Assembly (NCBI GenBank): GCA_973895155.1 | Contig: OZ316892.1 | Coordinates: 30,324,932-30,388,931 of the forward strand | Length of the DNA stretch: 64,000 nucleotides | Source: Marsupella aquatica | Lineage: Eukaryota; Plantae; Marchantiophyta | Direction: 5' to 3' | Program-made: the position numbers and the translations under genes | Notes under the pieces: model-generated | Database searches by the model: none | What the model was told of the DNA's origin: nothing | The model's input: the letters and a program-made list of their open reading frames with translations, nothing else | In this document: piece after piece, positions 1 through 36,190 of the stretch | How the letters are laid out: every line of letters begins with the position of its first letter | Numbering within the stretch: the first letter of the stretch is position 1

Positions 1-2
1 TA

Positions 3-2164: not shown

Positions 2165-2226
2165 TTACGCCTTTATGTTTTTACGCTTTTACGCGATTAC
2201 ATCTTTACGTTTTTACGCTTTTACGG
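2165..2226 (+). repeat. Degenerate short tandem repeat (TTTTACG-like) in the A1 LTR
   Basis: ttacgcc-tttatg-tttttacgc-ttttacgcg-attacatc-tttacg-tttttacgc-tttttacgg. Confidence 0.6.
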
Positions 2227-6100: not shown

Positions 6101-6161
6101 GCAAGGGAAAGGAACCGGCTGTGGAGGTAGTGAAGAAGAAGAAGCGGAAACCTTCGGGGTC
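3141..6161 (+). pseudogene. B2 LTR-encoded PMD-like/coiled-coil ORF, middle part (stops, frameshift, split by insertions A1 and C1)
   Basis: ORF pieces 3264-3635, 3673-4836 and 4963-6204 match the B1 LTR ORF. Stops at 3261 (TGA) and 4834 (TAG), and an 11-bp deletion near 3567. Confidence 0.85.
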
Positions 6162-6520
6162 TGTGACGCCGCCGGTATGGCGGTTAATGAGTGATTCGGT
6201 CTAACTGCGCTCAACACGCACGTTAGGAGTATCTTAGGCCACTATTATTAGCATAACGACAGTATTTAGGTAATCATTATGGATAGGACATCATTAGGCA
6301 ATAAGGGGGAATTCAGGTTTGGACTGGCGGCGGGTCGCTATTCGCACACCTGGGTTACGAGCGTGGAGGGGCCCCTCCCTCCGGTCCGTATAACAAACTT
6401 AAGGAAGCGACCACTGACCCGCGCTGACTCAGACCGGCGGAGTGGCCGGTACACCTCAAGCGTGAGCGGTTCAGCCTATGGGCGTCGAGGAGACGTCGGG
6501 GGATCGGCAAGCCCTCAAGG

Positions 6521-6528
6521 TATAAAAA
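6521..6528 (+). promoter_or_regulatory. TATA box upstream of the C LTR ORF (5' LTR)
   Basis: GGTATAAAAAGG about 100 nt before ATG 6629, followed by a pyrimidine-rich leader. Same motif at 31186. Confidence 0.55.
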
Positions 6529-8319
6529 GGGAGCCGACCCTTTGGAGTGCACCAGTCCATCAGTCCACGCGCCAGCTTTGACCCCAGCTCTCTCGCTCGC
6601 TCTAAGTTGCCACTACTATCTCCTCTGAATGTTGCACACGATCCTCTCCAGCTCGGCCATTCAATTCTGGACGCAGTTCCTATCTACCGGAAGGCACTTG
6701 GCCGACTCATTGAAACACGCCAACCCGCACCGATACAAAATCGAACGCGAGTACGAGAGAGCTATCCGCCTAGCCGGACGTCACCACTATATCCTTAACT
6801 TTGACTACCCGTCTCAGAGCGAGCTTTACCGACCAGCAAAGGTATCTAGGTACTTCTTCAACGGAGACAAATATACCGGTTTCTGGGAAGCATTGCTTTG
6901 GCTTCCGGACGAGGTCTTCAATATCCCGGGTACAATCGACTTGCAACGACATCACTTTGACCACATCCCTGCTCAGGTTCGGGCTATCATCAACAGCGAG
7001 TCCAGCACTACCCGTTCGACAAGGTCGTCTGCACTTGCTTCGGAGAACTTCTACTAGCACCTACAGAGCTTCATGGGAACTCGACCATCAACCAACATGA
7101 CCAACTCACCCGTACCTGTACCCATGCAACCTCAGGCTCAACCTCAGGCTCAGCTTCAGCTTCAGCCTTAGCCGCAACCTAGCCAAACCCCACCACCGAT
7201 TGCCCAGCCGGCACAAGTACGCTCCGTCATCAACGTTGTGGATCTTAGCGATGACAACGAGGCTACCCCACCCTTGACCAGGCGGCCCAGAGGAACAAGC
7301 GCTCAGGGGGCCGGCACTATATCGTCCCTGCCCCCTACTCTGACCCCAGGAGCGGCCCCGGCAGACATGGTGACCGTGGCCGCCCCGGGCCCGTTACTAA
7401 CGGCAGTGGCACTACCCAGGCCCGATCGGAAGGATGGGGAAGTGTCACCTTCCCTGAGCCAGTCAAGGGGGAAGAAGAGGAAGGAATCCGCCACTGCATC
7501 CGGGTTACCATTGGCCACGGTAGCCGTGGCCAAGGTAACAATGCACCGCATGGGGGAAAACGTGCATAAGAATATCCTTCATCCCAAGCATGCGGTGTAC
7601 CTGAAGACTCAGGGATTCGAGCACCTCGCCGCTCTGCCCTGGAACACTTGCACGTACTACGGGGAGGACATGACGGAATTCGTCAAGAATTATGATGATA
7701 CACGTCAGCAAACTCGGATGCGGGGAAGGAATATGTCCCTCACGGAAGAACAGCTCAGGATGATCTTCGGATTACCCGAAGGTGACCATCGAGTCGAATC
7801 ACGGGCTCCCGGGGGCAAGGGAGCCAAGTACCAATCTTCAAGTTTTCCCTCAGAGGGAGCAGTGGACAACGGGTTCGTGATGAGGACCTGCCTCATCCCC
7901 GAGATAGCTGAGCGACTGGAGTTCTAGAGGTACGCCCTCCACATGATGGAACCCCGGGGGGAGATCTCCGCCGCCCAGGTTATCCAGGTCGAGAACTATC
8001 GACCTAGGAAGTGGGCGTCGTACTTCGCTAAGAAATTCCATGGAGAGATGGAGCGGCGAAGGAAGACACTGTACATTGGCGGGAAGGCGTACTTCGCTAG
8101 CCACATCGAGATCATTCTTGAGTGGTATGCTCGGTTTGATCGACGAACCCTTCCCCGTGTCAACGTTACAAAGCTGGTCCCGGCTAGGTGGGTTTTCCCG
8201 GCCTTGGAGAGACGGCCCCAACCCGAGGCCCGAAGTCCGGCGGACACGCCAGCTTCACCCACCCCACCTCCACAAGTAGCTGTGGTCGTAACCGAGGAGG
8301 TACCGGAGGGGTCGGTTGT

Positions 8320-11300
8320 TGTGGTGCGTCCCATGGCTCCCTAAACCCAAGCAACCCCCCAGCTCAAGCCGATTCCCGCGGGTTTCACGCTTGGCGAGGC
8401 CGTTTCCGCGGCTTAGCGGCATGGGACGCTGCTAACCTTCTACTACTACTATTAACATTTTACACACATATACTGGACAGATCCTTCATCGGGTCATGAG
8501 ATACGTAGCCGGCCTAATATAGGCCTTCCCCTGTCTTCCCCTGTCTTCCCCTCCGTCTTGTTAGGTATGTTTGGATTCCGCCGCCGGAATGATCCCCAAT
8601 AGGCTTGGTTAAGCCGCTAAGACCTCTCTCAGCTCGACACATCCAACTCTCACTCCCCTGCTTACTTTCCTTCCTTCTGTTGATGTGGGCACTCTTCACA
8701 CAAGTTAATGCGACACACAAATAGCAAAATGACTCATTCTGACTGAGTCATACCATGCACTTGCCATACAAACAGTACATCTCATACACAAGTTCTGCGA
8801 ACTAAGCCGTGAGGCCAACTCTATTCAGCTCTTAGGCATGAGGAAACATGAATATACACAAGGGTCACTGTATGACTAACCGAGAGCTTCTCGTACTACT
8901 TGATCCCAGCCCGGCTGGTGCAAACTAAAAACTTGCTAAAGAAGAGGCCCTGAGCTCCCCGCTGCCCAGGTACTTATCCTGGTAGTGGATCCGCCATTCT
9001 TTGCATCGTAAGCCTAATCTACTTAACAGTAATCTACTTGCCCGAATCTACCTATGTACAGCAAGGCAGGAGCACAAGTGTTGCTCCTACCAGTGGGACC
9101 GCAATCCCACTAAGCTAAGTGTCAGGGCCGCTCCTGGTTCTGATCCTAATCCTAAACGTGGAGATCCGTGCCCGCCCTGCCCACTCACGCCTCCTCCCTC
9201 CACGTCCGCCCTCCCTAAAAGGAACGGCGCCCTTGCACCGTCACGACACCGGTGGTGGATCCTCAATGGACGCCCCCAACACTTCCTCCGCAGCCACTGC
9301 CGTTGGCCCGCCTACTGACAGATTACCTGCCCTTGACCGAGTCAACTCTCCCTCGGCCTGACTGGGTCCACCTTCGGCTTCAGCCTCGACACCGGCCTCG
9401 GCAATACCCACGGCTTCGGCTTCAACCACCCCCACGGCTTCGGCTTCAGCCACTCCCACGGCTTCGGCCTCAGCCACTCCCACGGCTTCGGCCTCCCCTT
9501 CCCCTAGGGTAGTTGGATCCTTAGCCGTGACCCTGTCTGGGGTCGGTGCTGGGTCTACCTCCTTGATCACCACGGCCTGTGAAGTCGTATTACTCCTTGA
9601 CCCTGAAGGTTTCCGCTTCTTCTTCGTTGGTGGCTCGGCAGCTGGTCCCTTCCCCTTCCCACTTACCTCCGGCACTGGTGCAGGTGGCGCGGCTTGTCCT
9701 TCGGCAATTACCACCCCTGGTAACTGGTTTGTCCCAACAGGAGATGGACCTGCTGCAGCTAAGCATTTAAATACTGCGGCTTGTTTCTTCAGCCGCTCTG
9801 TTTGGTTGTCGGCCCGCCGCTGTAGGTTCTCCATCTTCCTCGTGATTTCCTCCAACTCCTCTTGGGTTTCATCCAGGTCCTTACGTGCCCCCTCCAGCTC
9901 GTTTTTGGCCTCCTCCTGCTCCCTGTGGGCTTCCTCCAATTCCTTCTTCAAGGTAGCCTTCTCCTCCTGGGTTGCTCTTAGCTCCTTGTCGAGCTCTGCA
10001 ATGATGACAGACTCCATCTGGTTCATCTTGGCGTAAGTCTGTTCGAGCATCTCGTCCTTCTCCCTTAGGTCGGCCTTGAAGCTGGCCATCAGGGACGCAA
10101 GCTCCTGCTGCAGCGCCATAATCCCTTGATAGGATTTCCCTAACTCGACCTCCTTCTGCTCAAGGGCTCCGCGGATTTTCTCGAGCTCCCCTTTCAACGC
10201 CCATTCCTTTCTTTGGGTCTCCGCCATGGCCCGGCTGTTGGTTGTTATGTGGGCCTCCTCTGTATTCTTCAGCTCTTGCTTCCACTTTTCCCTTTCTTTG
10301 ATCGTGTCGGCCAATTCTTCCTGCGTCTGAGTCAGTTTATCCTTGATATTCTGATTATCAGCCTGCGCGGCGTCCAACTGCCCCTGCATGATGTTCAGCT
10401 CATGTCGTTTAATCCGCAGTTCATCTTGGGCTTTCTTGGCCGCCCTTAGATCTTCAATCTCGGCTTCCATCCTCCTAAGCCGCCGAATGACCTCGTCCTT
10501 CTTGCTTCTCTCTAAAGCCACCGCTTCTTCTAATTGGTGCTTCTCCAACTGCTCCCTATGGAAAAAGGGTCCTACCTCCAACTCCTCTCCAAAGATGCCG
10601 AGCGCAAGTTCCCCACACATCTCACCATACTCCATGGCTCTATCTTAGCGTAGGTGGAGTAAGTAGAAGTGATCGGCATCGCCCATCGTGGCCTCTGCTC
10701 CCAAGCCGTCCTGCGGATCTCTTCAATCGTGGCTAGAGGTTTGCTTCCTTTTTCGGCTAGCCGCCTGATGTCCTCCGGCCAATCTCCTCCTGGTAAATCC
10801 TTTTCCTTAGCCAGGGCGGCCTCTTCCTCCTGCTTGATTCGCTCCTGAAATTCCTGCACCGTCTGTTTTATGCCGTCGAAGCTCGGGGGAGCAACATCTG
10901 GTGGGGGAGACTCAGGGCTACTCTGCTGGTTGGGGTCCCCTCGCACTACCCTTGGAAGTGTGGGGACAAACCGGCCACAGGTCCTTACTCCTGGAACGTG
11001 ATGGTCCGACCCATAGCCGGAATTATCATGGCTGCAGTCCTCCACTGCCTCCTCTACCTCTTGGATTTCCGGCTTCTCCCTCTCCTCTTCCTCGGTAGGA
11101 GCTTCAGGCAATTCTGCCTCAGATTCGGAGCTTGAGGTTCCCACGTACATTCGAACACCTGGCTTGGATTCCGGCCTGATTCTCTCCTTGTCTCCAGCAA
11201 AGGGGTTTTCTCTTGTGAGCCGGTGTCGGCCTACCTCTGTAGTAGTGTCCTGCATTGTTGCCGTTGCCGTTGTTGTTGCCGATGCCGATTTCTTTTCTTT

Positions 11301-12997
11301 CTCCAGTAGTTTCAGCAGACTCTGCATGCCTGGTTGCTGCATCGGCAAGTCTTCCTTCCTGGGCCTAAACACCTGCTCGATCGTAGGACTAACAGGTGGT
11401 TGAGGCTTCTCAGCCAACGGCCTCGGCGTTGGAGCTTCCTCGGGTGCCCTTACCTGCAGGGGAAGTACCGGGGCAAAAGTCTGACCTCTGGCATACCGGC
11501 ACAACAGCGGCATGTGATAGCCAAGCCGCGACACGCTCCCCATGCCGATTACCTGCTGCTCCTCCTTTAAGATCTTCTTCAATTGGTTGAGGAGGTACCC
11601 GTTGTAGTCCCGGCTTGGGTCTGGCCTTTCTGCCAGATAGACCTGTGCCTTGCCGATCCCTCGGCAAGTTACAATGCATGGTCACCCGCAAGAAGTCGAT
11701 CATCTCTCCTATGTGCGGGTTGGTGCAGGTGTTCCGGAAGAAGCCATTCTTCGTTGATGGCCCGGGGAACGACCGGAACTCCTTGTCAGGCAAGGTCTTC
11801 CTGGTATCAACTTTGGTCTTATTGCCCATCGGCAAGCCAAACACTTCGGCAATCACCTTGGGAGTAAGATAGAAATCCTTCCCATATATCCTCGTGCAAT
11901 TGGTCTCGGGTTCCCATGACCCCACGAATTCTAATAGGTCTGACTCCGGTACCTCCGGCTTCAGCCATGGTAATCTTACAAAGGCCTCCAAGCCGGATCC
12001 GGCCATGAAGCCTTGGTACTTCTTGGTCTGCATGGCCGTAAAGCATGCATCCTCCTCCCGTGCAAAATGTAGTTGCACCTCCACCGGTAGGGTTGCCGCC
12101 CAGCCCTTCCAGGTGTCATCCCTGGTTGGAATGGCCTTGATGGGATCGACCTCCTCCTCTTCGGCTTCTCCCTGCCTCCTGCTCTGCTGCTCGGCTGGCT
12201 TCTTTGGTGCCGCCGACCTCGTTCTTTTTGCCGGGGTGGCTTCATCGTTGACGGCTCCCTTCCTCTTCATCTCTGCTGCCGTGGAGGTTTCTCCTAGCAC
12301 CGTTGCCTGGGTCCACCTTTCCGTGCTACCCTTTAATTCCCAGTGTATGTTGTTGCAGTTCTTGATGGCCTCTCGGATGCCGACGACGCTGTCCTTGCAA
12401 AACAGAAGATCGTCGAGTTGATTGGAAGTAGGCGTCCACAGGAACTCGTCCTTGATGAGTTCGCCTCCTAAGAAAGCCGTCTTCTGCAGCTCCCACAATC
12501 GAGCGAGCTCCTGCCGTTCTCGAGCTGCCCTTTCTGACTCCTCGTCCTCGTAAGTCTTGATGTACTCAGTCGCCCGTTCGAACAGGCATCCCCATAAATG
12601 TGCCGCTTGATTGACGTTGCTCATACCCTCCTTAGGTTGATCGTCGGTATCTACTCTCTCCCCGAGTGCTTGCCTAAGCAGCTGACAGTAGTTGGCCTCC
12701 CGTAGTCGTCTGCCTAGTTCGTGCTCGCAAATGAGCCACCATCTCCTGCAAGCGCTCCTTACCCCTCTCCTCTGCCGGTCCTTCTTCCCGTTGATCCTTC
12801 CTAGCCGCCGACGCTTAACGCGCCCTAACCCTAATCGGGTTTTCACCCTCAGCCTTACCTCCGGCCTCTGCCCGGGTTCCATGGTTGCCCCTAATTGTTT
12901 ATATTTTCCTTGTTTTGTCACTATACTAAGGTGTTCCTAGGGTGCCTTCCTGCTTTACCCACTTAACCGGCCGAGTGATTCCTGTCTAGGCATCACA
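8320..12997 (-). repeat. B1 3' LTR (4678 bp)
   Basis: Direct repeat of 19222-23899, and it follows the PPT on the minus strand. Confidence 0.97.
9241..12882 (-). pseudogene. B-family LTR-encoded protein (~1215 aa reconstructed: PMD-like domain, low-complexity linker, long coiled coil, basic NLS-like patch, AEAEAVGV repeats), with two frameshifts
   Basis: ORFs 11410-12921, 10572-11582 and 9241-10635 join into one frame when a 5-bp (~11658) and a 1-bp (~10643) deletion relative to B2 are restored. ATG at 12882 in GCAACCATGG; the true start is uncertain. Confidence 0.85.
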
Positions 12998-15900
12998 TAG
13001 CTCCCCACTTAATTGTGAAGCATCCTCGCGAACAACTTCATCTTCGTCCATATAGTATTTCTTGAGGCGGTCATAATGGATGCGAACTGGATATACCTCT
13101 CCCGTAATGTTGGCCAATTGCACGGAGCCATTGGGGAACATCATGGTTACTCGAAAGGGTCCTAACCAGCGAGTGTAAAGCTTCCCTGGAAACCTACTAT
13201 ACCTACTGTCATAAAGTAGCACAAGATCACCGGTATGAATACTAACTACTTTTAACCTTTTATCATACTGCTGCTTCATGATATTCTGTCTATATTCTAC
13301 TCTCTCGGCTGAAATCATTCTCGCTTCCTCTAAAGCTTCTAACCTATATTCTCGCTCCTTTAGGCTCTCCTCCGCTGAGGCTCTTTCCTCAATTGTAACT
13401 TGAAATGTCGGTATCTCAAGTTGCGTGGGTACCAGGGCTTCTTGTCCAAAGGTTAAGAAGAAGGGTGTATGACCGGTAGTGGATTTATAGGCCAGATTGT
13501 AAGCAAAAACAGCAGCAAACAATTTATCATCCCAATCGAGTTTGTTCTGAGCTACTGTCTTGTTCAATATCTTTCCTATGATTCCGTTTGCTCGTTCTGT
13601 CAACCCGTTTGCCTTTGGATGGTAGGGAGTAGTAGGCCTATGTTTAACTAAATACTGCTCATTTAAACGACTAATTATATCATTCAAAAAATGGGTTCCT
13701 CTATCACTAACTAATTCTAGGGGTGCTCCATACCTGGTGAAGATCTGCTCATACATGAATCTAGCCGTAGTAATTGCATCATCCTTCGTTGTTGGTCTGG
13801 CCTCTACCCATTTAGTTGCATAATCCGTAGCCAGGATTATGTACTTGTTCCGTCGAGGGTGGGTCAGTGGTTTCAGAGGTCCAATGTAATCAATACCCCA
13901 CTTCTCGAATGGTGCCAGAGGTAGAATAGGGTGCAGTGGATGCCTGGTGGACGCCCTTGGTCCGCCCGCTCGTTGACAAGGATCGCATTGTTTGATAAAC
14001 TGATAGACATCTTTGTGCAAGGTGGGCCACCAGTAACCGGCATTTAATATCTTCTTAGACGTGGTTACTGGGGCAAAATGTCCTCCGGCCTCCTCTCCAT
14101 GCATGGCCCGTAGGACTCGTTTTACCTCTCTCTTCTCCAAACACCTTTGAATCGTGCCGTTGATTCCATGCTTGTGCAGTATGCCTTTAATGCACTGATA
14201 CTGTCTGACCTTCCGCACAAAGACTGCGGCTTGCTCTCGGCTTAATCCTGGCTGTAATCTGGAAGTGCTGAGAAATTGTAAAATCTCAGGGTACCATGTA
14301 CCAGCTATTTCCACAACGAATAGCTCCTCGTCGGGGAATCGATCATCGATGCAATCCGTGGCAGGTTTACCTGTGATCCTTGAAAAGAAGTCGGCATTGG
14401 CATGTAACTTTCCTGGCTTGATCCTCAGCTCATAGTCAAACTCCTGTAATAGCAAAATCCATCTTGCTACTCTGCCTATAAGGTCCGGCTTATTGACTAG
14501 GTACTTCAAACTTTCATGATCAGTATGAAAGATTACCTTGTACCCTAGTAAATAATGCCTAAACTTTTTACAAGAATAAATGACTCCTAATGCTTCTCTT
14601 TCCGTGGTAGAGTAGTTCCGTTCGGCATCGGCAAGCTGACGGCTTGCGAAGTATATGGGATGGTCCCTTCTTTTCTCATCCAACTGACTTAGTACTGAGC
14701 CAATACAGAAGCCCGAGACATCTACAAAAACATGAAAATCTTTGTTCCAGTCCGGTGCTATCATGACTGGGGCCTCTACTAACATCTGCTTCAATTCTAC
14801 CACCGCTGTGACTCGTTCGGGTGTGGGTTCGAAGTCTGCTCCTGCCTTGAGCATATTGGTTAATGGTAAAGCTAGCTTGGCAAAATCCTTGATGAACCGG
14901 CGATAGTAACCAATGCATCCCAAGAAGGATCTTACATCCTTTATGTTCTTAGGTTGCATGATATCTAGCCATACTGCTAGCTTACCTTTGTCAATCTCAA
15001 TGCCCTTCCTTGATACCTTGTGACCTAGTAGCACCCCCTCGGTTACTGCAAAAAAACATTTATCTGGGTGTAACTTGAGACCCACCTCCCTACATCTCAT
15101 GAAGGTTTTCCTGAGGTATTTAGCATGTTTCGATGCCTTCCCGAATACTGCAAAGTCATCAATGAAGATTTCCATGAACTTTCTCAAGTAATCATGAAAA
15201 ATGTTCACCATTAATCGTTGGAACATAGCTGGTACGTTGCAGAGTCCAAACGGCATACGATTGAAGACATAGATCCCCCATTCCGTGATGAAGGCCGTCT
15301 TGATTTGGTCTTCCTGCCGAATCCTGATTTGGTTATAACCAGAGTATCCATCCATGAATGAATATAGTTCATGACTGGCTACCATGTCTAGTACCATATC
15401 AGTAAACGGTAAAGGAAAATGGTCTTTTAATGTTGCTTCATTCAGCTTCCTGTAATCCTGACAAACCCGGATCTTGGGTTTACCATCGGGTCCAGCTTTC
15501 TTGGGAACTATCACAATTGGAGACACCCAGTCTGAATGCAGGACTGGAGTGATGAATCCAGCTTCCACTAGTTTGTCGATTTCTGTTTTGACCAGCAGGG
15601 AATACTTCGGGTTCATCCTTCGAATTGGTTGTCGAAATGATTTGGCTCCTAACATGAGATCAATTCGATGTTCCCCTAGTGTTGGATCTACGCCCTTTAG
15701 ATCTTGGTGACTCCATGCAAACACATCCTGAAATTCAATCAATAAGTCACTGATCTCTTTCTCGAGCTCAGGTGCTAGGTTTCTCCCTAAGTTCAGTTCT
15801 CTTCCCTCTCCTAAGTCGAGCTTCCGATATTGCCGTGCTTGGATCATATTAATCTGCTTCTTCAAATTCGGGTCCAGTTCGGCTTCCAGTCTCTCTAATC

Positions 15901-16228
15901 TCATACCTCCATAAACTGGGATCTCGGCTGGACTAGCCGAGTCGGTCCCTTCCTTGGTGTCCATAGATTGTCCCCTTACCGGTCTATTCGGTTTTGAATT
16001 AGTGGTCGGCTCCCCTTCCTGCCTTGGCTCTGGATCGTGTCTGTCCATCTCATCCACCTCTTGGTCCTGAGAGTTAGGCCGCTGTGCTCTCTCGGCTTCT
16101 AATAGGGCCTCAATTTGTTCTGCCCTTGTAATCGGCTTGTATGCCGATCCCTTGGTATTTAATTCCTTGCCGATGATCGATGGCGTTGTGGACCCCGTCG
16201 GCTCTGCCACAACGCCTGCAGAAAATCC
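12986..16228 (-). CDS. pol: Pol (RT - RNase H - integrase), probably expressed by -1 frameshift from gag-pro
   Basis: RT (DYRKLN, MPFGL, FIDDF), RNase H (DVSGFCIG, TDHESL), integrase (H-H-C-C, WGIDY, SDRGTHF, NGLTER, GPF). No chromodomain. The stop lies 12 nt inside the 3' LTR. Confidence 0.95.
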   Translation of the reverse strand, partial: GFSAGVVAEPTGSTTPSIIGKELNTKGSAYKPITRAEQIEALLEAERAQRPNSQDQEVDEMDRHDPEPRQEGEPTTNSKPNRPVRGQSMDTKEGTDSASPAEIPVYGGMRLERLEAELDPNLKKQINMIQARQYRKLDLGEGRELNLGRNLAPELEKEISDLLIEFQDVFAWSHQDLKGVDPTLGEHRIDLMLGAKSFRQPIRRMNPKYSLLVKTEIDKLVEAGFITPVLHSDWVSPIVIVPKKAGPDGKPKIRVCQDYRKLNEATLKDHFPLPFTDMVLDMVASHELYSFMDGYSGYNQIRIRQEDQIKTAFITEWGIYVFNRMPFGLCNVPAMFQRLMVNIFHDYLRKFMEIFIDDFAVFGKASKHAKYLRKTFMRCREVGLKLHPDKCFFAVTEGVLLGHKVSRKGIEIDKGKLAVWLDIMQPKNIKDVRSFLGCIGYYRRFIKDFAKLALPLTNMLKAGADFEPTPERVTAVVELKQMLVEAPVMIAPDWNKDFHVFVDVSGFCIGSVLSQLDEKRRDHPIYFASRQLADAERNYSTTEREALGVIYSCKKFRHYLLGYKVIFHTDHESLKYLVNKPDLIGRVARWILLLQEFDYELRIKPGKLHANADFFSRITGKPATDCIDDRFPDEELFVVEIAGTWYPEILQFLSTSRLQPGLSREQAAVFVRKVRQYQCIKGILHKHGINGTIQRCLEKREVKRVLRAMHGEEAGGHFAPVTTSKKILNAGYWWPTLHKDVYQFIKQCDPCQRAGGPRASTRHPLHPILPLAPFEKWGIDYIGPLKPLTHPRRNKYIILATDYATKWVEARPTTKDDAITTARFMYEQIFTRYGAPLELVSDRGTHFLNDIISRLNEQYLVKHRPTTPYHPKANGLTERANGIIGKILNKTVAQNKLDWDDKLFAAVFAYNLAYKSTTGHTPFFLTFGQEALVPTQLEIPTFQVTIEERASAEESLKEREYRLEALEEARMISAERVEYRQNIMKQQYDKRLKVVSIHTGDLVLLYDSRYSRFPGKLYTRWLGPFRVTMMFPNGSVQLANITGEVYPVRIHYDRLKKYYMDEDEVVREDASQLSGELCDA
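12998..13012 (-). other. Polypurine tract of B1
   Basis: Minus strand TTAAGTGGGGAGCTA directly before the LTR TG. Confidence 0.85.
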
Positions 16229-19152
16229 ACTGTCCCTGCTACTGCTCCCCACTTAGCCGTTTCATCCAATTGGTCTACATCCTTAACTTCCTCCGGAATT
16301 GCAGCTAAAAAGGTGGATTCTATTGTAAAGCAGTCCTCGACCTCTTCGTCTTCTTCTTCCAAGTCACCTTCCATTGGTTCTTGCCATAATCCGCTGGGGG
16401 GTACCTCTGGTCCAAAGACACCTTCTTCGGTTAGGTTAGTGAAGCATTCTAACCAACGTACTTCATCGGCTGACTCCAGTCCACTATCGTACCCATCTAC
16501 TTCCCTTATGCTTTTCCTACGGTCATCCTTAGTGTCCCAGGATACCGTGATAGAGGGGGTCCCGAAAGTGAACTGCTTTTTACCCCAATCTTCTATTACC
16601 TCGGCTAGGTACAGCCATGGCCTACCAATCAATAGCCGGAATGACGTAGGATTTACCGGTTTCATTACTACATAGTTAATGCTAAAGAAGATACCTCCTA
16701 TCTCTGTCTTGATGCCGGTTAACACTCCCGTAGGAATGACCTGATATCCATTGGCCATGTTCAACACTCTTCCAGTCATCTCCGGTGTTAGACCCCACCC
16801 TTTTGCTGTTGAATCAATCATAATACATACCCCTGATCCTCCATCGATGGGTACCCGTAGTAATAATTCTCCTTGAATCATTAATGGTAATGCTGGGGCT
16901 CCTTGATCTTCTTCTATCATTAGTACGTCGGATCTGGTTGCTACCTTGGGTAATCTCGGCTTGCCGAGAATAGCCTTCCTTAATTGCTTCCGGAAGTACG
17001 GGCTATTTTTCAATAGTTGACCTACTGTTGCCGAGACTCTAGATTCTAGTACATCTTTAGCCAGGTCATAGGGAACAATCGGCTTCTCCTCTGGTGGTGT
17101 TTCCGTCTTGGATTCGGCCAGTTTTGCCACGCTAGTCTCCACAGCTGTTGGGTCTTCCGAAGCAAACAATGCTTTTGCTCGTTTTACATCCTTGGCAATG
17201 GCTTCGGTATTCTCCAGGATTTCTAATTCTCTTAGTTGTTCCTTAACACTAGCCGTAACAGAGGGGTAGAACAACTTAGGATGATCTCGATTGAAGTCGC
17301 TATCTTGTGAAGGATTGGTTTCACTGGTGGGCTCATGGCTTACCTGTATTGCCGGAGCCCTCCCTTCTCCTTCTGTTGATGTTGACGAAGAGTCGATCCT
17401 TTCCTCCGTAACCTTCCCTTTATTTTTGGCCAGCCCATCCCACCTTTCCTTCCTTCTGGTAGATCGAGTAGAGACCCGGTAGCAATCATGATCTAAATCC
17501 TCCTCTGAGAAGGTTGATAGGGCTTCGGCCTCATCATCAGATGGTACGAACTCTGCCTCGGCATCCTCTTGCCATCCTAGTTCGATGTGGTTGATTTGAA
17601 CTCCTCCGGGGGTAGTACCTGGCGGTAAGATCTTGATCGGCAAAAGCTTATGATTTGCGGCCAGGCCTGCCAACCAAGTAGGACATTGCCCTAGCATATG
17701 ATCTTCCTGTCGGCATCCCATACATAGCTGAGCTGGTTGTCCATCACCCTGTTTGCGTGCATTCGGGCATTCTCTAGCAAAATGGCCAGGTTGACCACAA
17801 TTATAGCACGCCGCAAATCTTTGCACATTCGGCCTAGGAGGTACTGACGGGTTCTGAATAATCCGAGGATACATCTCTCCTGGATTGTTCCTTAACCCTG
17901 ACCACAGAGATGCAGGTCTGTTGGATAGGTCTCGTGCTCCAGTCTCACTGATGCCGAAAACACTATCAGCGGCATCTCCCAAAAAGTACTCTACTTCTCC
18001 CTGACATGGTCTGATCTCGGCCACATGCCGAACATGATTAGTATTAAGCTTAGGACAAGCATCTTTATGGTGTCCGGTTTTATAACATAAGGCACACCAT
18101 ACAGAGCTATCCTCCTGTACTACCTTCTTCTTTGGTTTTACCTCTGCAATGATAGCCTTAAGTTGCTCGGTAAGGGCTACGATGTTATCTGGTGGCTTAG
18201 CCTCCATCTTGACTTTCGTCTTCCCTCTCCTTCTGCCCTTCCTTTTCCTAGTTTTTTCTTCTTCAGAACTAGAAGATGACTCACTCTTGCTACTCCCACT
18301 ATTCGAGCTTGACTTATCACTTCTAGACTTCTTGGAATGTTTCTTCTTCTTATCTTTTTTCTTATGGGGTGATCCCTCCTCTGATGAGGAACTCTCAGAC
18401 TTAAGCTGTTTCTTCCGGCTTGTGATATCTGCATTAATGTATAATTGAATATCCTTAATTGCTTCGGCTAAAGTCTCCGGGTTCTCCTTCCTAATTGCAA
18501 AACTCATCTTCTGTGGCAAAGCATTCACCAACCATTGAAGTTGCATACCTTCAGATGCATTGGTCTTTGTACGTCTTACCAGTTTCTGAAAGCGTTGCAA
18601 GAACTTCCTGAAGGATTTGTTCTCCTTGAACCGAAGTTGTCCCAACTTCAGCACTGCTAGTTCTGAAGTTCCAATGGGTCGAAACTCCTTAACAAAGAGT
18701 GTTTTGAAGATATCCCAGATGGCTTGATCTTCCACATCTAATGCTCTGTACCAAGGCCTAGCCTCACCCTTGAACAGGCCGGGAAGAATCTGCATCTTGA
18801 TGGCCGATTCTCCATTTGCTGCAGCGGTTCCCTCGAAATCATCCAACCATTCGTCCGGATCCTCATCTCCTCTCCCATGAAATGCCTTGTAATGTATGCG
18901 CGACCGCTGGCTCAATCTGGTCCCTGGCCTCTCGTCTGGCCGTGCCTCTGGTTCCCCCATGTCGGTTGGAGACTCACTTCTCCTTACCGACTCTTCTTCT
19001 GGTATGTCTTCTTCGACGCCACTTCCAGTTTCGGAGCTACCAGCTCTTTCTGCCCCTCTCAGTCGCTGTGTATCATGCCACCCGGTGAGCTGCTGCAGTC
19101 GAGCTCTCTCCCGTTGAATCACTCTTTCTTCCCTCGGTGTAAGGTCAGTCAT
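16159..19152 (-). CDS. gag: Gag-protease polyprotein (997 aa)
   Basis: Capsid-like region (EDPDEWLDDF...ARPWY), CCHC knuckles (CALCYKTGHHKDAC, CYNCGQPGHFAREC, CMGCRQEDHMLGQC), aspartic protease (IDGGS...LLIGRPWL). Confidence 0.95.
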   Translation of the reverse strand: MTDLTPREERVIQRERARLQQLTGWHDTQRLRGAERAGSSETGSGVEEDIPEEESVRRSESPTDMGEPEARPDERPGTRLSQRSRIHYKAFHGRGDEDPDEWLDDFEGTAAANGESAIKMQILPGLFKGEARPWYRALDVEDQAIWDIFKTLFVKEFRPIGTSELAVLKLGQLRFKENKSFRKFLQRFQKLVRRTKTNASEGMQLQWLVNALPQKMSFAIRKENPETLAEAIKDIQLYINADITSRKKQLKSESSSSEEGSPHKKKDKKKKHSKKSRSDKSSSNSGSSKSESSSSSEEEKTRKRKGRRRGKTKVKMEAKPPDNIVALTEQLKAIIAEVKPKKKVVQEDSSVWCALCYKTGHHKDACPKLNTNHVRHVAEIRPCQGEVEYFLGDAADSVFGISETGARDLSNRPASLWSGLRNNPGEMYPRIIQNPSVPPRPNVQRFAACYNCGQPGHFARECPNARKQGDGQPAQLCMGCRQEDHMLGQCPTWLAGLAANHKLLPIKILPPGTTPGGVQINHIELGWQEDAEAEFVPSDDEAEALSTFSEEDLDHDCYRVSTRSTRRKERWDGLAKNKGKVTEERIDSSSTSTEGEGRAPAIQVSHEPTSETNPSQDSDFNRDHPKLFYPSVTASVKEQLRELEILENTEAIAKDVKRAKALFASEDPTAVETSVAKLAESKTETPPEEKPIVPYDLAKDVLESRVSATVGQLLKNSPYFRKQLRKAILGKPRLPKVATRSDVLMIEEDQGAPALPLMIQGELLLRVPIDGGSGVCIMIDSTAKGWGLTPEMTGRVLNMANGYQVIPTGVLTGIKTEIGGIFFSINYVVMKPVNPTSFRLLIGRPWLYLAEVIEDWGKKQFTFGTPSITVSWDTKDDRRKSIREVDGYDSGLESADEVRWLECFTNLTEEGVFGPEVPPSGLWQEPMEGDLEEEDEEVEDCFTIESTFLAAIPEEVKDVDQLDETAKWGAVAGTVDFLQALWQSRRGPQRHRSSARN
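16169..16228 (-). other. Putative -1 programmed ribosomal frameshift signal
   Basis: G_GAT_TTT in the gag frame, 5-nt spacer, 10-bp stem GGCGTTGTGG/CCACAACGCC, and loop GCCGA complementary to downstream TCGGC. Pol is in the -1 frame. Confidence 0.75.
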
Positions 19153-19199
19153 TACCTACGCTTCCGTTCTAACTTCATATCTCACGGCTTAAGAAATGC

Positions 19200-19217
19200 C
19201 CCCTCCATCTAGCGCCA
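19200..19217 (-). other. Primer binding site of B1 (tRNA-Asn-like)
   Basis: TGGCGCTAGATGGAGGGG, 4 nt after the LTR. One mismatch to the plant tRNA-Asn(GUU) 3' end as I recall it. Confidence 0.8.
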
Positions 19218-19221
19218 AAAA

Positions 19222-22200
19222 TGTGGTGCGTCCCATGGCTCCCTAAACCCAAGCAACCCCCCAGCTCAAGCCGATTCCCGCGGGTTTCACGCTTGGCGAG
19301 GCCGTTTCCGCGGCTTAGCGGCATGGGACGCTGCTAACCTTCTACTACTACTATTAACATTTTACACACATATACTGGACAGATCCTTCATCGGGTCATG
19401 AGATACGTAGCCGGCCTAATATAGGCCTTCCCCTGTCTTCCCCTGTCTTCCCCTCCGTCTTGTTAGGTATGTTTGGATTCCGCCGCCGGAATGATCCCCA
19501 ATAGGCTTGGTTAAGCCGCTAAGACCTCTCTCAGCTCGACACATCCAACTCTCACTCCCCTGCTTACTTTCCTTCCTTCTGTTGATGTGGGCACTCTTCA
19601 CACAAGTTAATGCGACACACAAATAGCAAAATGACTCATTCTGACTGAGTCATACCATGCACTTGCCATACAAACAGTACATCTCATACACAAGTTCTGC
19701 GAACTAAGCCGTGAGGCCAACTCTATTCAGCTCTTAGGCATGAGGAAACATGAATATACACAAGGGTCACTGTATGACTAACCGAGAGCTTCTCGTACTA
19801 CTTGATCCCAGCCCGGCTGGTGCAAACTAAAAACTTGCTAAAGAAGAGGCCCTGAGCTCCCCGCTGCCCAGGTACTTATCCTGGTAGTGGATCCGCCATT
19901 CTTTGCATCATAAGCCTAATCTACTTAACAGTAATCTACTTGCCCGAATCTACCTATGTACAGCAAGGCAGGAGCACAAGTGTTGCTCCTACCAGTGGGA
20001 CCGCAATCCCACTAAGCTAAGTGTCAGGGCCGCTCCTGGTTCTGATCCTAATCCTAAACGTGGAGATCCGTGCCCGCCCTGCCCACTCACGCCTCCTCCC
20101 TCCACGTCCGCCCTCCCTAAAAGGAACGGCGCCCTTGCACCGTCACGACACCGGTGGTGGATCCTCAATGGACGCCCCCAACACTTCCTCCGCAGCCACT
20201 GCCGTTGGCCCGCCTACTGACAGATTACCTGCCCTTGACCGAGTCAACTCTCCCTCGGCCTGACTGGGTCCACCTTCGGCTTCAGCCTCGACACCAGCCT
20301 CGGCAATACCCACGGCTTCGGCTTCAGCCACCCCCACGGCTTCGGCTTCAGCCACTCCCACGGCTTCGGCCTCAGCCACTCCCACGGCTTCGGCCTCCCC
20401 TTCCCCTAGGGTAGTTGGATCCTTAGCCGTGACCCTGTCTGGGGTCGGTGCTGGGTCTACCTCCTTGATCACCACGGCCTGTGAAGTCGTATTACTCCTT
20501 GACCCTGAAGGTTTCCGCTTCTTCTTCGTTGGTGGCTCGGCAGCTGGTCCCTTCCCCTTCCCACTTACCTCCGGCACTGGTGCAGGTGGCGCGGCTTGTC
20601 CTTCGGCAATTACCACCCCTGGTAACTGGTTTGTCCCAACAGGAGATGGACCTGCTGCAGCTAAGCATTTAAATACTGCGGCTTGTTTCTTCAGCCGCTC
20701 TGTTTGGTTGTCGGCCCGCCGCTGTAGGTTCTCCATCTTCCTCGTGATTTCCTCCAACTCCTCTTGGGTTTCATCCAGGTCCTTACGTGCCCCCTCCAGC
20801 TCGTTTTTGGCCTCCTCCTGCTCCCTGTGGGCTTCCTCCAATTCCTTCTTCAAGGTAGCCTTCTCCTCCTGGGTTGCTCTTAGCTCCTTGTCGAGCTCTG
20901 CAATGATGACAGACTCCATCTGGTTCATCTTGGCGTAAGTCTGTTCGAGCATCTCGTCCTTCTCCCTTAGGTCGGCCTTGAAGCTGGCCGTCAGGGACGC
21001 AAGCTCCTGCTGCAGCGCCATAATCCCTTGATAGGATTTCCCTAACTCGACCTCCTTCTGCTCAAGGGCTCCGCGGATTTTCTCGAGCTCCCCTTTCAAC
21101 GCCCATTCCTTTCTTTGGGTCTCTGCCATGGCCCGGCTGTTGGTTGTTATGTGGGCCTCCTCTGTATTCTTCAGCTCTTGCTTCCACTTTTCCCTTTCTT
21201 TGATCGTGTCGGCCAATTCTTCCTGCGTCTGAGTCAGTTTATCCTTGATATTCTGATTATCAGCCTGCGCGGCGTCCAACTGCCCCTGCATGATGTTCAG
21301 CTCATGTCGTTTAATCCGCAGTTCATCTTGGGCTTTCTTGGCCGCCCTTAGATCTTCAATCTCGGCTTCCATCCTCCTAAGCCGCCGAATGACCTCGTCC
21401 TTCTTGCTTCTCTCTAAAGCCACCGCTTCTTCTAATTGGTGCTTCTCCAACTGCTCCCTATGGAAAAAGGGTCCTACCTCCAACTCCTCTCCAAAGATGC
21501 CGAGCGCAAGTTCCCCACACATCTCACCATACTCCATGGCTCTATCTTAGCGTAGGTGGAGTAAGTAGAAGTGATCGGCATCGCCCATCGTGGCCTCTGC
21601 TCCCAAGCCGTCCTGCGGATCTCTTCAATCGTGGCTAGAGGTTTGCTTCCTTTTTCGGCTAGCCGCCTGATGTCCTCCGGCCAATCTCCTCCTGGTAAAT
21701 CCTTTTCCTTAGCCAGGGCGGCCTCTTCCTCCTGCTTGATTCGCTCCTGAAATTCCTGCACCGTCTGTTTTATGCCGTCGAAGCTCGGGGGAGCAACATC
21801 TGGTGGGGGAGACTCAGGGCTACTCTGCTGGTTGGGGTCCCCTCGCACTACCCTTGGAAGTGTGGGGACAAACCGGCCACAGGTCCTTACTCCTGGAACG
21901 TGATGGTCCGACCCATAGCCGGAATTATCATGGCTGCAGTCCTCCACTGCCTCCTCTACCTCTTGGATTTCCGGCTTCTCCCTCTCCTCTTCCTCGGTAG
22001 GAGCTTCAGGCAATTCTGCCTCAGATTCGGAGCTTGAGGTTCCCACGTACATTCGAACACCTGGTTTGGATTCCGGCCTGATTCTCTCCTTGTCTCCAGC
22101 AAAGGGGTTTTCTCTTGTGAGCCGGTGTCGGCCTACCTCTGTAGTAGTGTCCTGCATTGTTGCCGTTGCCGTTGTTGTTGCCGATGCCGATTTCTTTTCT

Positions 22201-23899
22201 TTCTCCAGTAGTTTCAGCAGACTCTGCATGCCTGGTTGCTGCATCGGCAAGTCTTCCTTCCTGGGCCTAAACACCTGCTCGATCGTAGGACTAACAGGTG
22301 GTTGAGGCTTCTCAGCCAACGGCCTCGGCGTTGGAGCTTCCTCGGGTGCCCTTACCTGCAGGGGAAGTACCGGGGCAAAAGTCTGACCTCTGGCATACCG
22401 GCACAACAGCGGCATGTGATAGCCAAGCCGCGACACGCTCCCCATGCCGATTACCTGCTGCTCCTCCTTTAAGATCTTCTTCAATTGGTTGAGGAGGTAC
22501 CCGTTGTAGTCCCGGCTTGGGTCTGGCCTTTCTGCCAGATAGACCTGTGCCTTGCCGATCCCTCGGCAAGTTACAATGCATGGTCACCCGCAAGAAGTCG
22601 ATCATCTCTCCTATGTGCGGGTTGGTGCAGGTGTTCCGGAAGAAGCCATTCTTCGTTGATGGCCCGGGGAACGACCGGAACTCCTTGTCAGGCAAGGTCT
22701 TCCTGGTATCAACTTTGGTCTTATTGCCCATCGGCAAGCCAAACACTTCGGCAATCACCTTGGGAGTAAGATAGAAATCCTTCCCATATATCCTCGTGCA
22801 ATTGGTCTCGGGTTCCCATGACCCCACGAATTCTAATAGGTCTGACTCCGGTACCTCCGGCTTCAGCCATGGTAATCTTACAAAGGCCTCCAAGCCGGAT
22901 CCGGCCATGAAGCCTTGGTACTTCTTGGTCTGCATGGCCGTAAAGCATGCATCCTCCTCCCGTGCAAAATGTAGTTGCACCTCCACCGGTAGGGTTGCCG
23001 CCCAGCCCTTCCAGGTGTCATCCCTGGTTGGAATGGCCTTGATGGGATCGACCTCCTCCTCTTCGGCTTCTCCCTGCCTCCTGCTCTGCTGCTCGGCTGG
23101 CTTCTTTGGTGCCGCCGACCTCGTTCTTTTTGCCGGGGTGGCTTCATCGTTGACGGCTCCCTTCCTCTTCATCTCTGCTGCCGTGGAGGTTTCTCCTAGC
23201 ACCGTTGCCTGGGTCCACCTTTCCGTGCTACCCTTTAATTCCCAGTGTATGTTGTTGCAGTTCTTGATGGCCTCTCGGATGCCGACGACGCTGTCCTTGC
23301 AAAACAGAAGATCGTCGAGTTGATTGGAAGTAGGCGTCCACAGGAACTCGTCCTTGATGAGTTTGCCTCCTAAGAAAGCCGTCTTCTGCAGCTCCCACAA
23401 TCGAGCGAGCTCCTGCCGTTCTCGAGCTGCCCTTTCTGACTCCTCGTCCTCGTAAGTCTTGATGTACTCAGTCGCCCGTTCGAACAGGCATCCCTAGAAA
23501 TGTGCCGCTTGATTGACGTTGCTCATACCCTCCTTAGGTTGATCGTCGGTATCTACTCTCTCCCCGAGTGCTTGCCTAAGCAGCTGACAGTAGTTGGCCT
23601 CCCGTAGTCGTCTGCCTAGTTCGTGCTCGCAAATGAGCCACCATCTCCTGCAAGCGCTCCTTACCCCTCTCCTCTGCCGGTCCTTCTTCCCGTTGATCCT
23701 TCCTAGCCGCCGACGCTTAACGCGCCCTAACCCTAATCGGGTTTTCACCCTCAGCCTTACCTCCGGCCTCTGCCCGGGTTCCATGGTTGCCCCTAATTGT
23801 TTATATTTTCCTTGTTTTGTCACTATACTAAGGTGTTCCTAGGGTGCCTTCTTGCTTTACCCACTTAACCGGCCGAGTGATTCCTGTCTAGGCATCACA
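19222..23899 (-). repeat. B1 5' LTR (4678 bp)
   Basis: Direct repeat of 8320-12997, followed by the PBS. Confidence 0.97.
20143..23784 (-). pseudogene. Second copy of the B LTR-encoded ORF (same two frameshifts plus a private TAG at 23494)
   Basis: ORFs 20143-21537, 21474-22484, 22312-23400 and 23494-23823. Confidence 0.85.
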
Positions 23900-25756
23900 G
23901 TTGTCGCAACCGTTGATGCGATCCAACAGGCCGGGCTAAGTACAGAAGTCGGTACAGCGAAGGTCTTACCCGAGCCCGGGTCTCCCAAAGACCCACCGGT
24001 AGCTATTCCGGAGAACCGGACATCGCTGCAGGAAGACACTCCAGCCCCTTCCAACATTACGTCCCCAGGGCTGGATGTCACTGCCCCGGCCCCCGCACGT
24101 GTTGACGTCTGCCTGTGCCCAACTCCGGACAGACACAACCTGGACCACCCGGAACTCTTCGTACCGGGCACATTTCTGAATGGGCTTCTAGGAGATTTCT
24201 CTCATCAAATTGCCCGGGATACCGGGGAGTTCATGGCCCGGAAGGTAGCCTGTTTCTTCAACCAGGAGTTAGTTGCCGCAGTAAAAGTCAGTCGGAGGCC
24301 CTTCAGAGGATAGAGAGGTACCGGGAGGAGTCCGTGTACCTAAAGAACGAAGTTGCAGCTCAGGAGGCTGAGCTTCTGCAACTACGACCCAAAGTTGCAG
24401 CCGCCGATGAGTTATTAGCAAAGGCGCACGCCCTTACCGCCCTAGCCGAGCAGGCCAAAGCAGGGAACGAGGCCGAGATTTCACGGCTCCGGTCCCAGAT
24501 TGACAGTTTGAAGAAACAAACTGTCAGCTGGCAGAGAGACTTGGAGGAGGCCGAAGAACGAGCCCAGCGGGACACTACGGAGATAGCCACGCTACAGGCC
24601 AAAGTGGCGCGGCTCCAAACCAAAGCCGAGAAGCAGGACCAGCTGGCGGGCAAGCTGATGAGCGACGCCCAGCAGTTGGAGGAGGCATGCCAGGAGGCAG
24701 CAGAGGAGACGGACGCGGCAAAGCGAGAGAACGAATCTCTGCTGGACCAGGTCCAGCTCCTCAAGGCGGACAACGACAGACTTCGGAGGCAGCGGGATGG
24801 CCGCTCCCACTCGGGCGGCTCTGGCAAGCGTGCCAGGCATTAGCGGCGGAGTAGGGATAGAATAGGGTTAGGAATAACTTAGTCAGGCTCTTGGGACAGG
24901 CACCTGCCTTAGCTACAGCAGCGCTGCCATGCTGTCCAGCCTCCGTAGATCACCATCTTCTAATAAGACATAGCCGTTTTCCGGCCTGACTGTCAGCTTA
25001 GTTAGGACCTTAGTCAGCGAATCTTCGGCAAGTGGACACCCCGTCCCTCGGCCCTTAGTATTTAGTGCACCCCTCGGTAGAGGCGAGGGGGGGGGTTTTT
25101 AGTTGCAGAGTTGGGCGTCCGCGGTATGTGCGGGGAGTCCCGACCTCTGGGAATGAAAGAGTACCAAGGGGAGGGGGTAGGACTAAGCTCGTCGGGCGAG
25201 TGCGGAGCCGGGCTCCGTTGTAGTGTGCACCCTCGGCCTTGAACCTGTTCATTCCGGGGCTGTCGGGTCAACTAAGTGTACGCATATGTTCCCTTTGTAG
25301 TAAAATCCTTTCCCATCATTTTCCTTCGTGTAAATCGAGATTGTATGCATGTGCGCGTGTATGTGTGTGGGCTTCTCGTATATGGGTGGCAGCGCCAGGC
25401 CGAACGCACTACCCGAGACGTGCACCGGGTGCAGCCTGCGGGTAAGTGGTTACGAGCACGGGTTGAGGACCTGTATCATCGAATCCGGATCGAAGGCGGA
25501 CAGCACGAAGGCTTAGAAGCCCTTAAGCCGGGGTCGATCCTGCTATCGACTAAGGTACGTTCCGGCGGCGGAACACAAACCATACCTAGGAGGTGTCCGT
25601 ATTTAGCAGTATGCGCACTTAGCGCTAGTTTACGAGAATAAGGTGCATTACGTGCTTCCCTTCCTGCCCGAACCCTCAGATTTACGAGGGATGTGCCCGT
25701 CTAAGCTGAAGTCTGAGTTAAGGCCGCAGCCGATGACGTGACATAGCCTTTGTTTT

Positions 25757-25774
25757 TGGCGCTAGATGGAAGGG
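25757..25774 (+). other. Primer binding site of C1 (tRNA-Asn-like)
   Basis: TGGCGCTAGATGGAAGGG, 13 nt after the LTR end at 25743. Confidence 0.8.
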
Positions 25775-25867
25775 GCACTCTACATATCGTAGAGGGGAGA
25801 CATGTGCGTATTCACCTAGGCAGGATACATCAAGACGTAGTACTAACCATCGCATTTATATGAGTAA

Positions 25868-28800: not shown

Positions 28801-30828
28801 CCAAACGGGGTATCGAGGTCGATCAAGAGAAGGTCGCGGCCTGGATGGCGGTGGTGTTCCCCGTGGATCAAAAAGCAGTACGATCCTTCTTGGGCTGTGT
28901 AGGGTATTACCGCCGGTTCATTAAAGATTTTGCTAAAATAGCTTTGCCCTTAACAGAGATGATAAAAAAGGACGCGGTGATCGAGGAGACCCCAAGGAGA
29001 CGGGTTGCTTTCGAAGAACTCCGTAAAAGACTCACCACCGCACCTATCATGGTCACTCCAGACTGGAACAAGGAGTTCCACGTGTATGTCGACGTGTCAG
29101 GGTTCTGTATCGGGTCTGTGCTTAGACAGCTTGATACAGACGGACGCGATCACCCCATCTACTTCGCTAGCCGTCAATTATTCACAGCCGAAAAAAATTA
29201 TTCCCCCACGGATCGAGAGGCACTGGGCATAATCTACTCATGTAAGAAGTTCCGGCACTATCTGCTCGGCCACAAGGTCATCTTCCACACGGATCACGAC
29301 AGCCTGAAGTACATGGTCAACAAAGCAGACGTAACGGGACGGATAGCCCGTTGGGTGCTACTTCTCCAGGAATTTAACTATGAAGTTCGGGTTCGGCCAG
29401 GAAAGGCACACCTCAATGCCGACTTCTTTTCACGGCTGGACGGCGTACCAGTCGATCAGCCAATTGATGATATTTTTCCGGATGAGGAGTTGTTCCACGT
29501 AGGGGAGGGGACACCAACGTGGTACGGCTCGATAATCACCTTCCTTTTAACAGGCCGCATCCCTGACGGCATCAATCAGGAGGCCGCCGCTGTGTTTTTA
29601 CGGAAAGCCGGGCCTTACGTCATGATACAGGGTCACCTACATAAGGAAGGTATTAATGGAAAGTTATGATGCTGCTTAGAGTATAAGGAGACGCTTATCA
29701 TGATGCGGGCCCTGCATGAAGAAGAAGCTGGAGGCCATTTCGCGGCAGTCACGACAGCCCGAAAGATTCTGGACTCGGGGTATTGGTGGCCTACATTGCA
29801 TCGGGATGTACAATGCTTCATTAAGGGCTGTGACTTGTGTCAGCGAGCTGGGGCCCCGAGGCGGGCTCATCATCACCCGCTCACATCTGTGCTGCCATCG
29901 GCACCATTCGAAAAATGGGGAATTGATTATATCGGGCCGTTTACTCCCGTTACCCAAAGGCGGAGATGCAGGTACATCCTATTAGCTATTGATTACTCCA
30001 CCAAGTGGGTCGAAGCGCGGGCTACGGTAAAGGACGATGCCGCAACCAGTGCCAGATTCTTATACGAACAGATTTTCACCTGATTCGGCCCACCCTTAGA
30101 ATTGGTAAGCGACCGTGGAACCCACTTCCTCAATGACACCGTAGCCCAGCTTATAGAGCATTACCTAGTCAAGCACCGCAAGACTACCCCGTATCATCCT
30201 AAGGCCAACGGGATGACAGAGAGAGCCAATGGTATCATTGGGAAGATCCTCAACAAAACTGTAGCTGCGCACAAAACGGATTGGGATGATAAGTTGTACG
30301 CAGCGGTGTACTCGTATAATCTAGCTTACAAAACTACTACGAGTCACAGCCCGTACTTTCTTGTGTTCGGCCAACATTCGTTGGTACCCGTCGAGTTTGA
30401 AGTACACACTCCATGGGTCAGCATTCGGGATCGCTTACCTGAATCTGAAAGTTCGTCAGACCGAGCTTATCAGATTGAAGCCCTAGAAGAAGCACGGCTA
30501 CTAGCAGCTCGACACGCCGTGAAGAAACAGGCAACTTTGAAGAAGCAGCACGACAAAGGACTACGGAGGGTCGACATCGTGGCAGGCGATCTAGTCCTTC
30601 TGTACGATAGTAGGTACATGCAGTTTCCAGGGAAGCTTCATACCCGGTGGTTAGGGCCCTTCCTTGTCAATCAGATCTACCGTAACGGATCTTTGGAGCT
30701 TGCGACGTATGCCGGCGATTTACTCCCCCCGTGAATCAGCTACGATCGTGTAAAAAAAGTACCATCATCAAGATGACGACGCCGAGAGTGATGTTCGCGA
30801 GGACGCTTCACAATTAAGCAGGGAGCTA
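25868..30828 (+). pseudogene. C1 gag-pro-pol (capsid largely deleted; stops and frameshifts in gag and integrase)
   Basis: Gag remnant DDPDEWLDDF, CYNC knuckle, PR VDGGA, RT FIDDF and RNase H in ORF 26505-29669. Integrase pieces at 29700-30083 and 30102-30734. Confidence 0.92.
30816..30828 (+). other. Polypurine tract of C1
   Basis: AAGCAGGGAGCTA directly before the LTR TG at 30829. Confidence 0.8.
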
Positions 30829-34854: not shown

Positions 34855-34859
34855 GGGTC

Positions 34860-36121: not shown

Positions 36122-36125
36122 TTTT

Positions 36126-36143: not shown

Positions 36144-36190
36144 GCATTTCTTAAGCCGTGAGATATGAAGTTAGAAAGGAAGCATAGGTA

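Follow-up and report, generated by a model that had tools for sequence, protein, structure and literature searches.

Accessory genes under purifying selection inside the giant long terminal repeats of liverwort Ty3/gypsy retrotransposons, with a predicted VANC-like core domain

The 64-kb window analysed here (64,000 nt of Marsupella aquatica, assembly GCA_973895155.1, contig OZ316892.1, positions 30,324,932 to 30,388,931) contains a nest of Ty3/gypsy retrotransposons, and in three families of these, A, B and C, an accessory gene of about 800 to 1200 codons resides in the long terminal repeat (LTR). The results support that these LTR-resident genes are real and under purifying selection. The core domain of their products is predicted to adopt the fold of VANC21 (PDB 9lnk), and because of this modelled resemblance to a transposon anti-silencing protein the repeats likely help their own family to escape host silencing. 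We assign a probability of roughly 0.5 to the reading that the LTR gene product is a VANC-like DNA-binding anti-silencing protein.

Element borders were set by self-alignment of the window and border inspection, which placed B within the 5′ LTR of C, C within the LTR of a second B-family element (B′), and A within the pol region of B′. The original observation that target site duplications (TSDs), a primer binding site (PBS) and a polypurine tract (PPT) fix the LTR borders was confirmed for B and C, and for A by its TSD and an empty site. B lies on the minus strand with a 3′ LTR at 8320–12997 and a 5′ LTR at 19222–23899, each of 4678 bp and together 60% of the element as claimed, which end in TG...CA, differ at 10 positions (99.8% identity) and are flanked by the 5-bp TSD GTTGT. 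Between them are the PBS (TGGCGCTAG..., 19199–19221, by border inspection), gag (16159–19155, 998 codons open, with gag and zinc-knuckle matches), pol (12986–16252, 1088 codons open, encoding reverse transcriptase (RT), RNase H and integrase), and a PPT cassette of a conserved GTTCGCGAGGA-type motif plus a purine tract (12998–13033) that overlaps the pol end; the same order was found with breaks in C and in a fourth element, D. C is on the plus strand, and its LTRs, put at about 4.0 kb beforehand, measured 4002 bp for the 5′ copy split by B (6162–8319 and 23900–25743, with the PBS 13 nt downstream) and 4026 bp for the 3′ copy (30829–34854), with the TSD GGGTC. Its internal region (25744–30828) holds a protease–RT–RNase H open reading frame (ORF), a broken integrase and a PPT cassette at 30793–30828; no recognisable gag match was found at 25744–26500, where the long ORF begins with the protease, and the gag may be deleted or broken. 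A is a solo LTR of 4146 bp, the length first given, on the minus strand at 39969–44114, with the TSD CCAGT and TTACGAG-type repeats in its first ~370 bp. The plus-strand B′ LTR occupies 3141–6161 and resumes at 34855–36121, followed by its PBS and gag-pol (36122–39968 and 44115–~45204), and A′, the 3′ part of a second A-family LTR, fills plus-strand positions 1–3140.

The claim that one long ORF mostly fills each LTR stood for A and failed for B and C. The A gene (41152–43554, minus strand) is the only unbroken one, with 800 aa comprising an N-terminal core domain predicted to be VANC21-like and a conserved C-terminal domain of unassigned kind; A′ contains an open frame of 647 aa that reaches the window edge and is 72% identical to A. 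The lengths given for B (~1215) and C (~887) hold as codon counts across breaks, not as intact ORFs. In both B LTRs (9241–12882 and 20143–23784) the gene is divided into three frames by two shared frameshifts near LTR positions 1335 and 2351, with one additional stop in the 5′ copy, and the lesions of the disrupted B′ copy differ from these. The C copies (31294–33956 in the 3′ LTR, behind a TATA-like box near 31186) carry stops and frameshifts in both LTRs, and every lesion is private to one LTR, which implies that the frame was open at insertion. A was covered whole by near-identical contigs in all four public runs, and seven of the nine indel rows listed for these contigs lie outside the ORF, the two inside forming a near-compensating pair; furthermore, the empty site of the A insertion was present in two public runs. 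In run X3, two contigs continue beyond the end of A and reach a TGGCGCCG primer site resembling that of D, which supports A as a genuine LTR with the ORF in sense, the orientation originally proposed. As side observations, A′ (2165–2225) and A (40882–40946) have differing 8-bp tandem arrays at a similar place past the ORF (TTACGCTT-type and AAGAGTTT-type, respectively), a sign of fast motif turnover, and the sole block common to the B and C LTRs is a 28-bp, TTCCGGCGGCGGAA-type stretch near their 3′ ends (8562–8589 and 34671–34699), a candidate conserved cis-element.

The ratio of non-synonymous to synonymous substitution rates (dN/dS) was 0.16 for the A/A′ gene (636 codons, 95% interval 0.12–0.22) and 0.26 for the B/B′ gene (996 codons, 0.21–0.33), compared with 1.19 and 1.32 in shifted-frame controls; gag gave 0.18, and two segments of pol gave 0.22 and 0.07. 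Neither value for the LTR genes is near 1, an outcome named beforehand as one that would speak against the proposal, and the signal is far above chance. Three further features were noted. Between the two C LTR gene copies (30829–34854 vs 6162–8319 plus 23900–25743) dN/dS was 0.49 (0.29–0.85), where neutral drift is expected within one insertion; a switch of template from one C RNA to a different one, or recombination at a later time, may account for this. A and A′ (41152–44114 vs 1–3140) share ~83% identity over the non-coding 1.2 kb past the ORF while synonymous sites of the ORF are near saturation (dS about 1.0), a pattern that points to either strong constraint or recombination of one LTR part with another. 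The C-terminal ~280 aa of the A protein (41152–42050) are its most conserved part (dN/dS 0.08) and are common to D and two database proteins; no Pfam match was obtained for this part, and an Atlas search with residues 520–800 returned nothing at 0.9 or above.

The proteins of A, B, C and D have a ~200-aa domain in common; A and D share the second, C-terminal domain, and in B the core, predicted to be VANC-like, is followed by a long predicted coiled coil. A full HMMER search with the domain profile retrieved 247 matching proteins, while word-indexed protein searches retrieved one A-like cluster only; among the 20 homologues looked up, the named organisms were Calypogeia and Selaginella, and unbroken relatives in the protein collection included 808-aa A-like proteins and one 906-aa C-like protein. 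A Pfam scan of the window LTR proteins gave weak coiled-coil matches only, a PDB sequence search gave coiled-coil noise only, and Foldseek searches of PDB and BFVD returned nothing at E≤0.001. No DUF1985 match came up for the A core (0 families), for 82 homologues at the E≤0.001 level, or in the 25 families listed for 104 members. The window proteins did not match PF20167 (Transposase_32) either; the best homologue scored 34 bits vs a gathering cut-off of 45, one Selaginella homologue matched at E 3.5e-8, and PF20167 similarity appeared in 21 of 30 Atlas matches (score 0.90, 152–156 shared features). Three PF20167-bearing angiosperm polyproteins showed no match to the core profile. The original proposal assigned no function; the domain would be a distant relative of plant-transposon accessory domains (Transposase_32 and a VANC/DUF1985-like fold).

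The closest named RT–RNase H proteins were from the liverworts Calypogeia fissa (69–70%) and Riccia sorocarpa (55–60%), with angiosperm proteins at 36–51%, and the element lineage likely belongs to liverworts and mosses. A metagenome scan with an integrase alignment yielded 78 loci, 10 of which encode the domain (E≤4e-11), every time in sense directly past pol. Seven of these (L002–L007 and L009) have an intact PPT cassette and TG right past pol, then the gene, like B and C, and in L002 and L006 the sequence following the PPT forms an inverted repeat with that preceding the PBS; we infer that the gene is inside the LTR in these seven loci, none of whose contigs spans both LTRs. In L001, L011, L053 and D, the PPT cassette past pol is degenerate and the gene follows downstream; in D and L001 the gene is followed by a second, intact PPT cassette and an LTR of ~1 kb, so that it is internal. 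The proposal of a lineage-wide accessory gene housed in the LTR was therefore borne out by the layout of the seven relatives, but not by D and L001, where the gene is internal, or by L011 and L053, where it lies past a degenerate PPT. In a 40-row integrase tree (26 of the 78 loci, three window elements and 11 proteins), all eight labelled LTR-type rows fell on one side of a branch (91/82), the seven LTR-type relatives grouped with B and C, and D with L001, L008, L011 and L053 formed a separate group (100/99); a 22-row bryophyte group stood apart from the angiosperm proteins in this tree. In a quick domain tree of 22 rows, the A gene clustered with those of L001, L011 and L053 (SH-aLRT 96), so the gene position switched at least twice. 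It therefore appears that the gene falls inside or outside the LTR according to which PPT primes the plus strand. According to the available part of PMC2829016, Athila4 and Calypso have an extra PPT in the linker past pol, which suggests that the internal state is older. The reverse direction, giant LTR first, is allowed by the first PPT of D-type elements, which looks decayed.

The position of the gene relative to the promoter was assessed by a TATA-like pattern scan of 11 giant-type 5′ regions, that of L010 being too short. Of the 11, 6 (C, L003, L004, L005, L006 and L009) have a canonical match that lies upstream of the ORF, 339–461 nt into the LTR; B has a match at +95, L002 and L007 have earlier ones only, and A has none by pattern, with a weaker TTATTTAC near +480 by eye. 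Each LTR is plausibly able to express its gene. The same scan bears on an alternative placement, in which the gene is not in U3 but in R or U5, downstream of a single LTR promoter, and the genomic RNA has it as first cistron, like Ogre ORF1; this arrangement, compatible with either function weighed below, has a chance only slightly short of even, and the giant LTR could then be ancestral in the clade with D-type elements derived. It agrees with the upstream matches, with the absence of TATA-like matches past the ORF in B, C and L007 and ahead of the internal ORF in D, L001 and L053, with the motif cluster and TATA-like box at the same distance (+379) in the short LTR of D, and with the degenerate first PPT of D-type elements, which resembles a decayed terminal PPT. 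However, A, A′, L005 and L006 have TATA-like matches past the ORF as well, and in D and L001 the homologous gene is found after pol and before the 3′ LTR, which, together with the extra linker PPT of Athila4 and Calypso (PMC2829016), favours capture into U3.

VANC proteins, as described in the accessible text of PMC5735166, bind short motifs that pile up in their own element in a family-specific manner. A motif test was carried out, with tandem repeats masked, on 53 sequences, namely the four window elements and 49 of the 78 loci (≥3 kb), with the gene-bearing L009 and L053 left out as too short. Among the 12 gene-bearing elements, 11 showed enrichment of a CG-containing 6–7-mer (corrected p<0.01), vs 2 of 41 others, with six different motif types; of the 22 AATCGCT occurrences in the window, 20 lie inside D and one lies 23 bp beyond its border. 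The likeness to VANC of VANDAL (MuDR) DNA transposons consists in the predicted fold and in a repeated family motif within the encoding element. The differences are that the carrier here is a bryophyte-type Ty3/gypsy LTR retrotransposon, that identity to VANC21 is 8–10%, and that no DUF1985 Pfam match was seen; the LTR protein likely works like VANC without being a member of the VANC family. Several limits apply to the motif test: C is a gene-bearing element without motif enrichment; the test was made after the observation, on 12 related elements with mostly distant controls; L008 was counted among the controls though it is a clade member; and known VANC motifs lack CG and are non-coding, whereas those found here contain CG and occur also in coding DNA.

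Taken together, bryophyte-type Ty3/gypsy elements carry a selected accessory gene of 800–1200 codons in each LTR, which would be placed there by plus-strand priming at the PPT right past pol, and a second PPT and ~1 kb LTR downstream would render the same gene internal. A TATA-like box 340–480 nt into the LTR could allow expression from every LTR, solo LTRs included; a short motif with a CG, repeated within the product's own family, would be recognised by that product, and this binding would keep family copies unsilenced. The protein would act in trans, because B transposed while already frameshifted. The extended form of this proposal, in which the giant LTR is a self-contained anti-silencing cassette of promoter, VANC-like gene and its own target-motif arrays that survives solo-LTR formation, with protein and motif co-diversifying by family, is put forward tentatively, as a possibility with the odds somewhat against it. 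It is rather unlikely, while still a serious contender, that an accessory gene with the same fold serves replication or integration (chromatin tethering of the pre-integration complex, nuclear import or packaging) and that the motifs are host-factor sites or a by-product. The long predicted coiled coils and basic patches past the domain in B and C are in line with such a role, the nesting of all four families in one another suggests targeting to retrotransposon-rich chromatin, and regulatory or nuclear roles for extra ORFs are proposed in the accessible part of a review (PMC7264820). However, both gene copies of the recent B insertion (10 differences per 4678 bp) were already frameshifted, so the protein is dispensable in cis, and family-typical motifs would be left without an explanation.

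An envelope-like factor for cell-to-cell spread is very improbable: although the sense orientation, the location downstream of pol in D-type elements and the distant relation to the Athila extra-ORF domain PF20167 (PMC11728184, available text) agree with it, none of 16 LTR-gene or extra-ORF frames has a transmembrane segment (best 19-residue hydropathy ≤1.47), and the top fold match of the core domain is a DNA-bound nuclear protein. A reading of the long repeats as local duplications, or as captured DNA of neutral kind, with non-functional ORFs is hardly credible, even though every B, B′ and C gene copy in the window is broken, since it is refuted by the LTR borders, the low dN/dS and the end-to-end coverage of A in four runs, and the 247 domain-profile proteins also speak against it. 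The probability left beyond these functional readings falls to other functions.

Protein-coding sequence in an LTR, duplicated at each replication, is known from sag of mouse mammary tumour virus, an LTR-encoded superantigen, and from the nef overlap of human immunodeficiency virus; these belong to animal retroviruses and encode much shorter, unrelated proteins with immune functions. Neither the archaeal-type second RNase H of the Tat clade (including Ogre and Retand) nor the integrase chromodomain of chromoviruses was matched, the former by Pfam in the pol frames of B, C and D, and pol ends at the PPT; the elements are thus non-chromovirus, non-Tat Ty3/gypsy. The extra ORFs of Athila/Tat/Ogre (PF20167 Transposase_32, PF03078 ATHILA, PF10536 PMD) resemble the present genes as sense accessory ORFs of non-chromovirus Ty3/gypsy elements with distant PF20167 similarity, and the Athila-like layout of two PPTs with an internal sense extra ORF is found in D and L001 but not in A, B or C. 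Those ORFs are placed in the internal region in the available text of PMC6317226 and PMC7264820, whereas the present gene sits in the LTR, is found twice in each element, persists in solo LTRs and encodes no transmembrane helix. Retrosat2/RIRE3 (Tekay) likewise combines very long LTRs (>3 kb) with an extra ORF; its ORF0, as far as PMC3485330 was accessible, is upstream of gag-pol and not part of the LTR, and the lineage is chromoviral. Phygy and Selgy of REXdb are also non-chromovirus Ty3/gypsy elements of non-seed plants; according to PMC6317226 they are short elements whose internal part is filled by the polyprotein, and Phygy prefers NCGN for insertion, whereas the elements here span 12.6–15.6 kb, with an additional gene and TSDs of 5 bp, and so lie outside that description of Phygy. 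LTRs reaching about 5 kb are noted in this survey. Searches of a literature that mostly excluded subscription papers found no account of genes resident in the LTRs of plant retrotransposons, and REXdb supplements may list such elements; the accessible text of PMC4408406, PMC12885004, PMC7466625, PMC12844716 and PMC3485330 describes none.

The function of extra ORFs in plant Ty3/gypsy elements is stated to be unknown in the available parts of PMC7264820, PMC4408406 and PMC6317226, and methylation modulation by them is called an open question in that of PMC12844716. The VANC-like predicted fold together with named candidate target motifs per family offers a testable candidate function. Relative to the literature found, a whole 800–1200-codon gene in a plant LTR is a new architecture, with a simple account through the choice between two PPTs, and solo LTRs may be complete genes rather than inert scars, which bears on transposable element annotation and on models of bryophyte genome size. 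If the proteins are motif-specific de-silencers, they would constitute a natural library of epigenome-targeting domains. If the cassette proposal is correct, solo-LTR deletion by the host would leave a trans-acting family activator behind, VANC-like anti-silencing would be a land-plant-wide retrotransposon strategy, and a function would be suggested for the ‘env-like’ Athila-type ORFs.

D (45344–57980, minus strand) has ordinary 1061-bp LTRs. Its internal extra ORF (47584–49665, minus strand), a homologue of the LTR genes that encodes 693 aa when counted from the first ATG, is flanked by a degenerate PPT (~50125–50165) and an intact one (46405–46440) before the LTR. No matching TSD was seen around D (45205–45343 and 57980), and D-like sequence runs beyond its 3′ LTR where the B′ pol breaks off; these borders and the cut pol suggest a rearrangement. 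Rfam at gathering thresholds and ARAGORN gave no match in the window, so a ribozyme or tRNA explanation is without support, and a scan of viral contigs found no relative. Two stretches outside the nest, 58299–60616 and 62134–62988, contain clustered tandem duplications of 129 bp and 218 bp, as well as a frame of 284 codons that has no Pfam match. Among the metagenomic loci, an element of another bryophyte-type clade (L013:7076–7831) has an unrelated 252-codon frame past pol.
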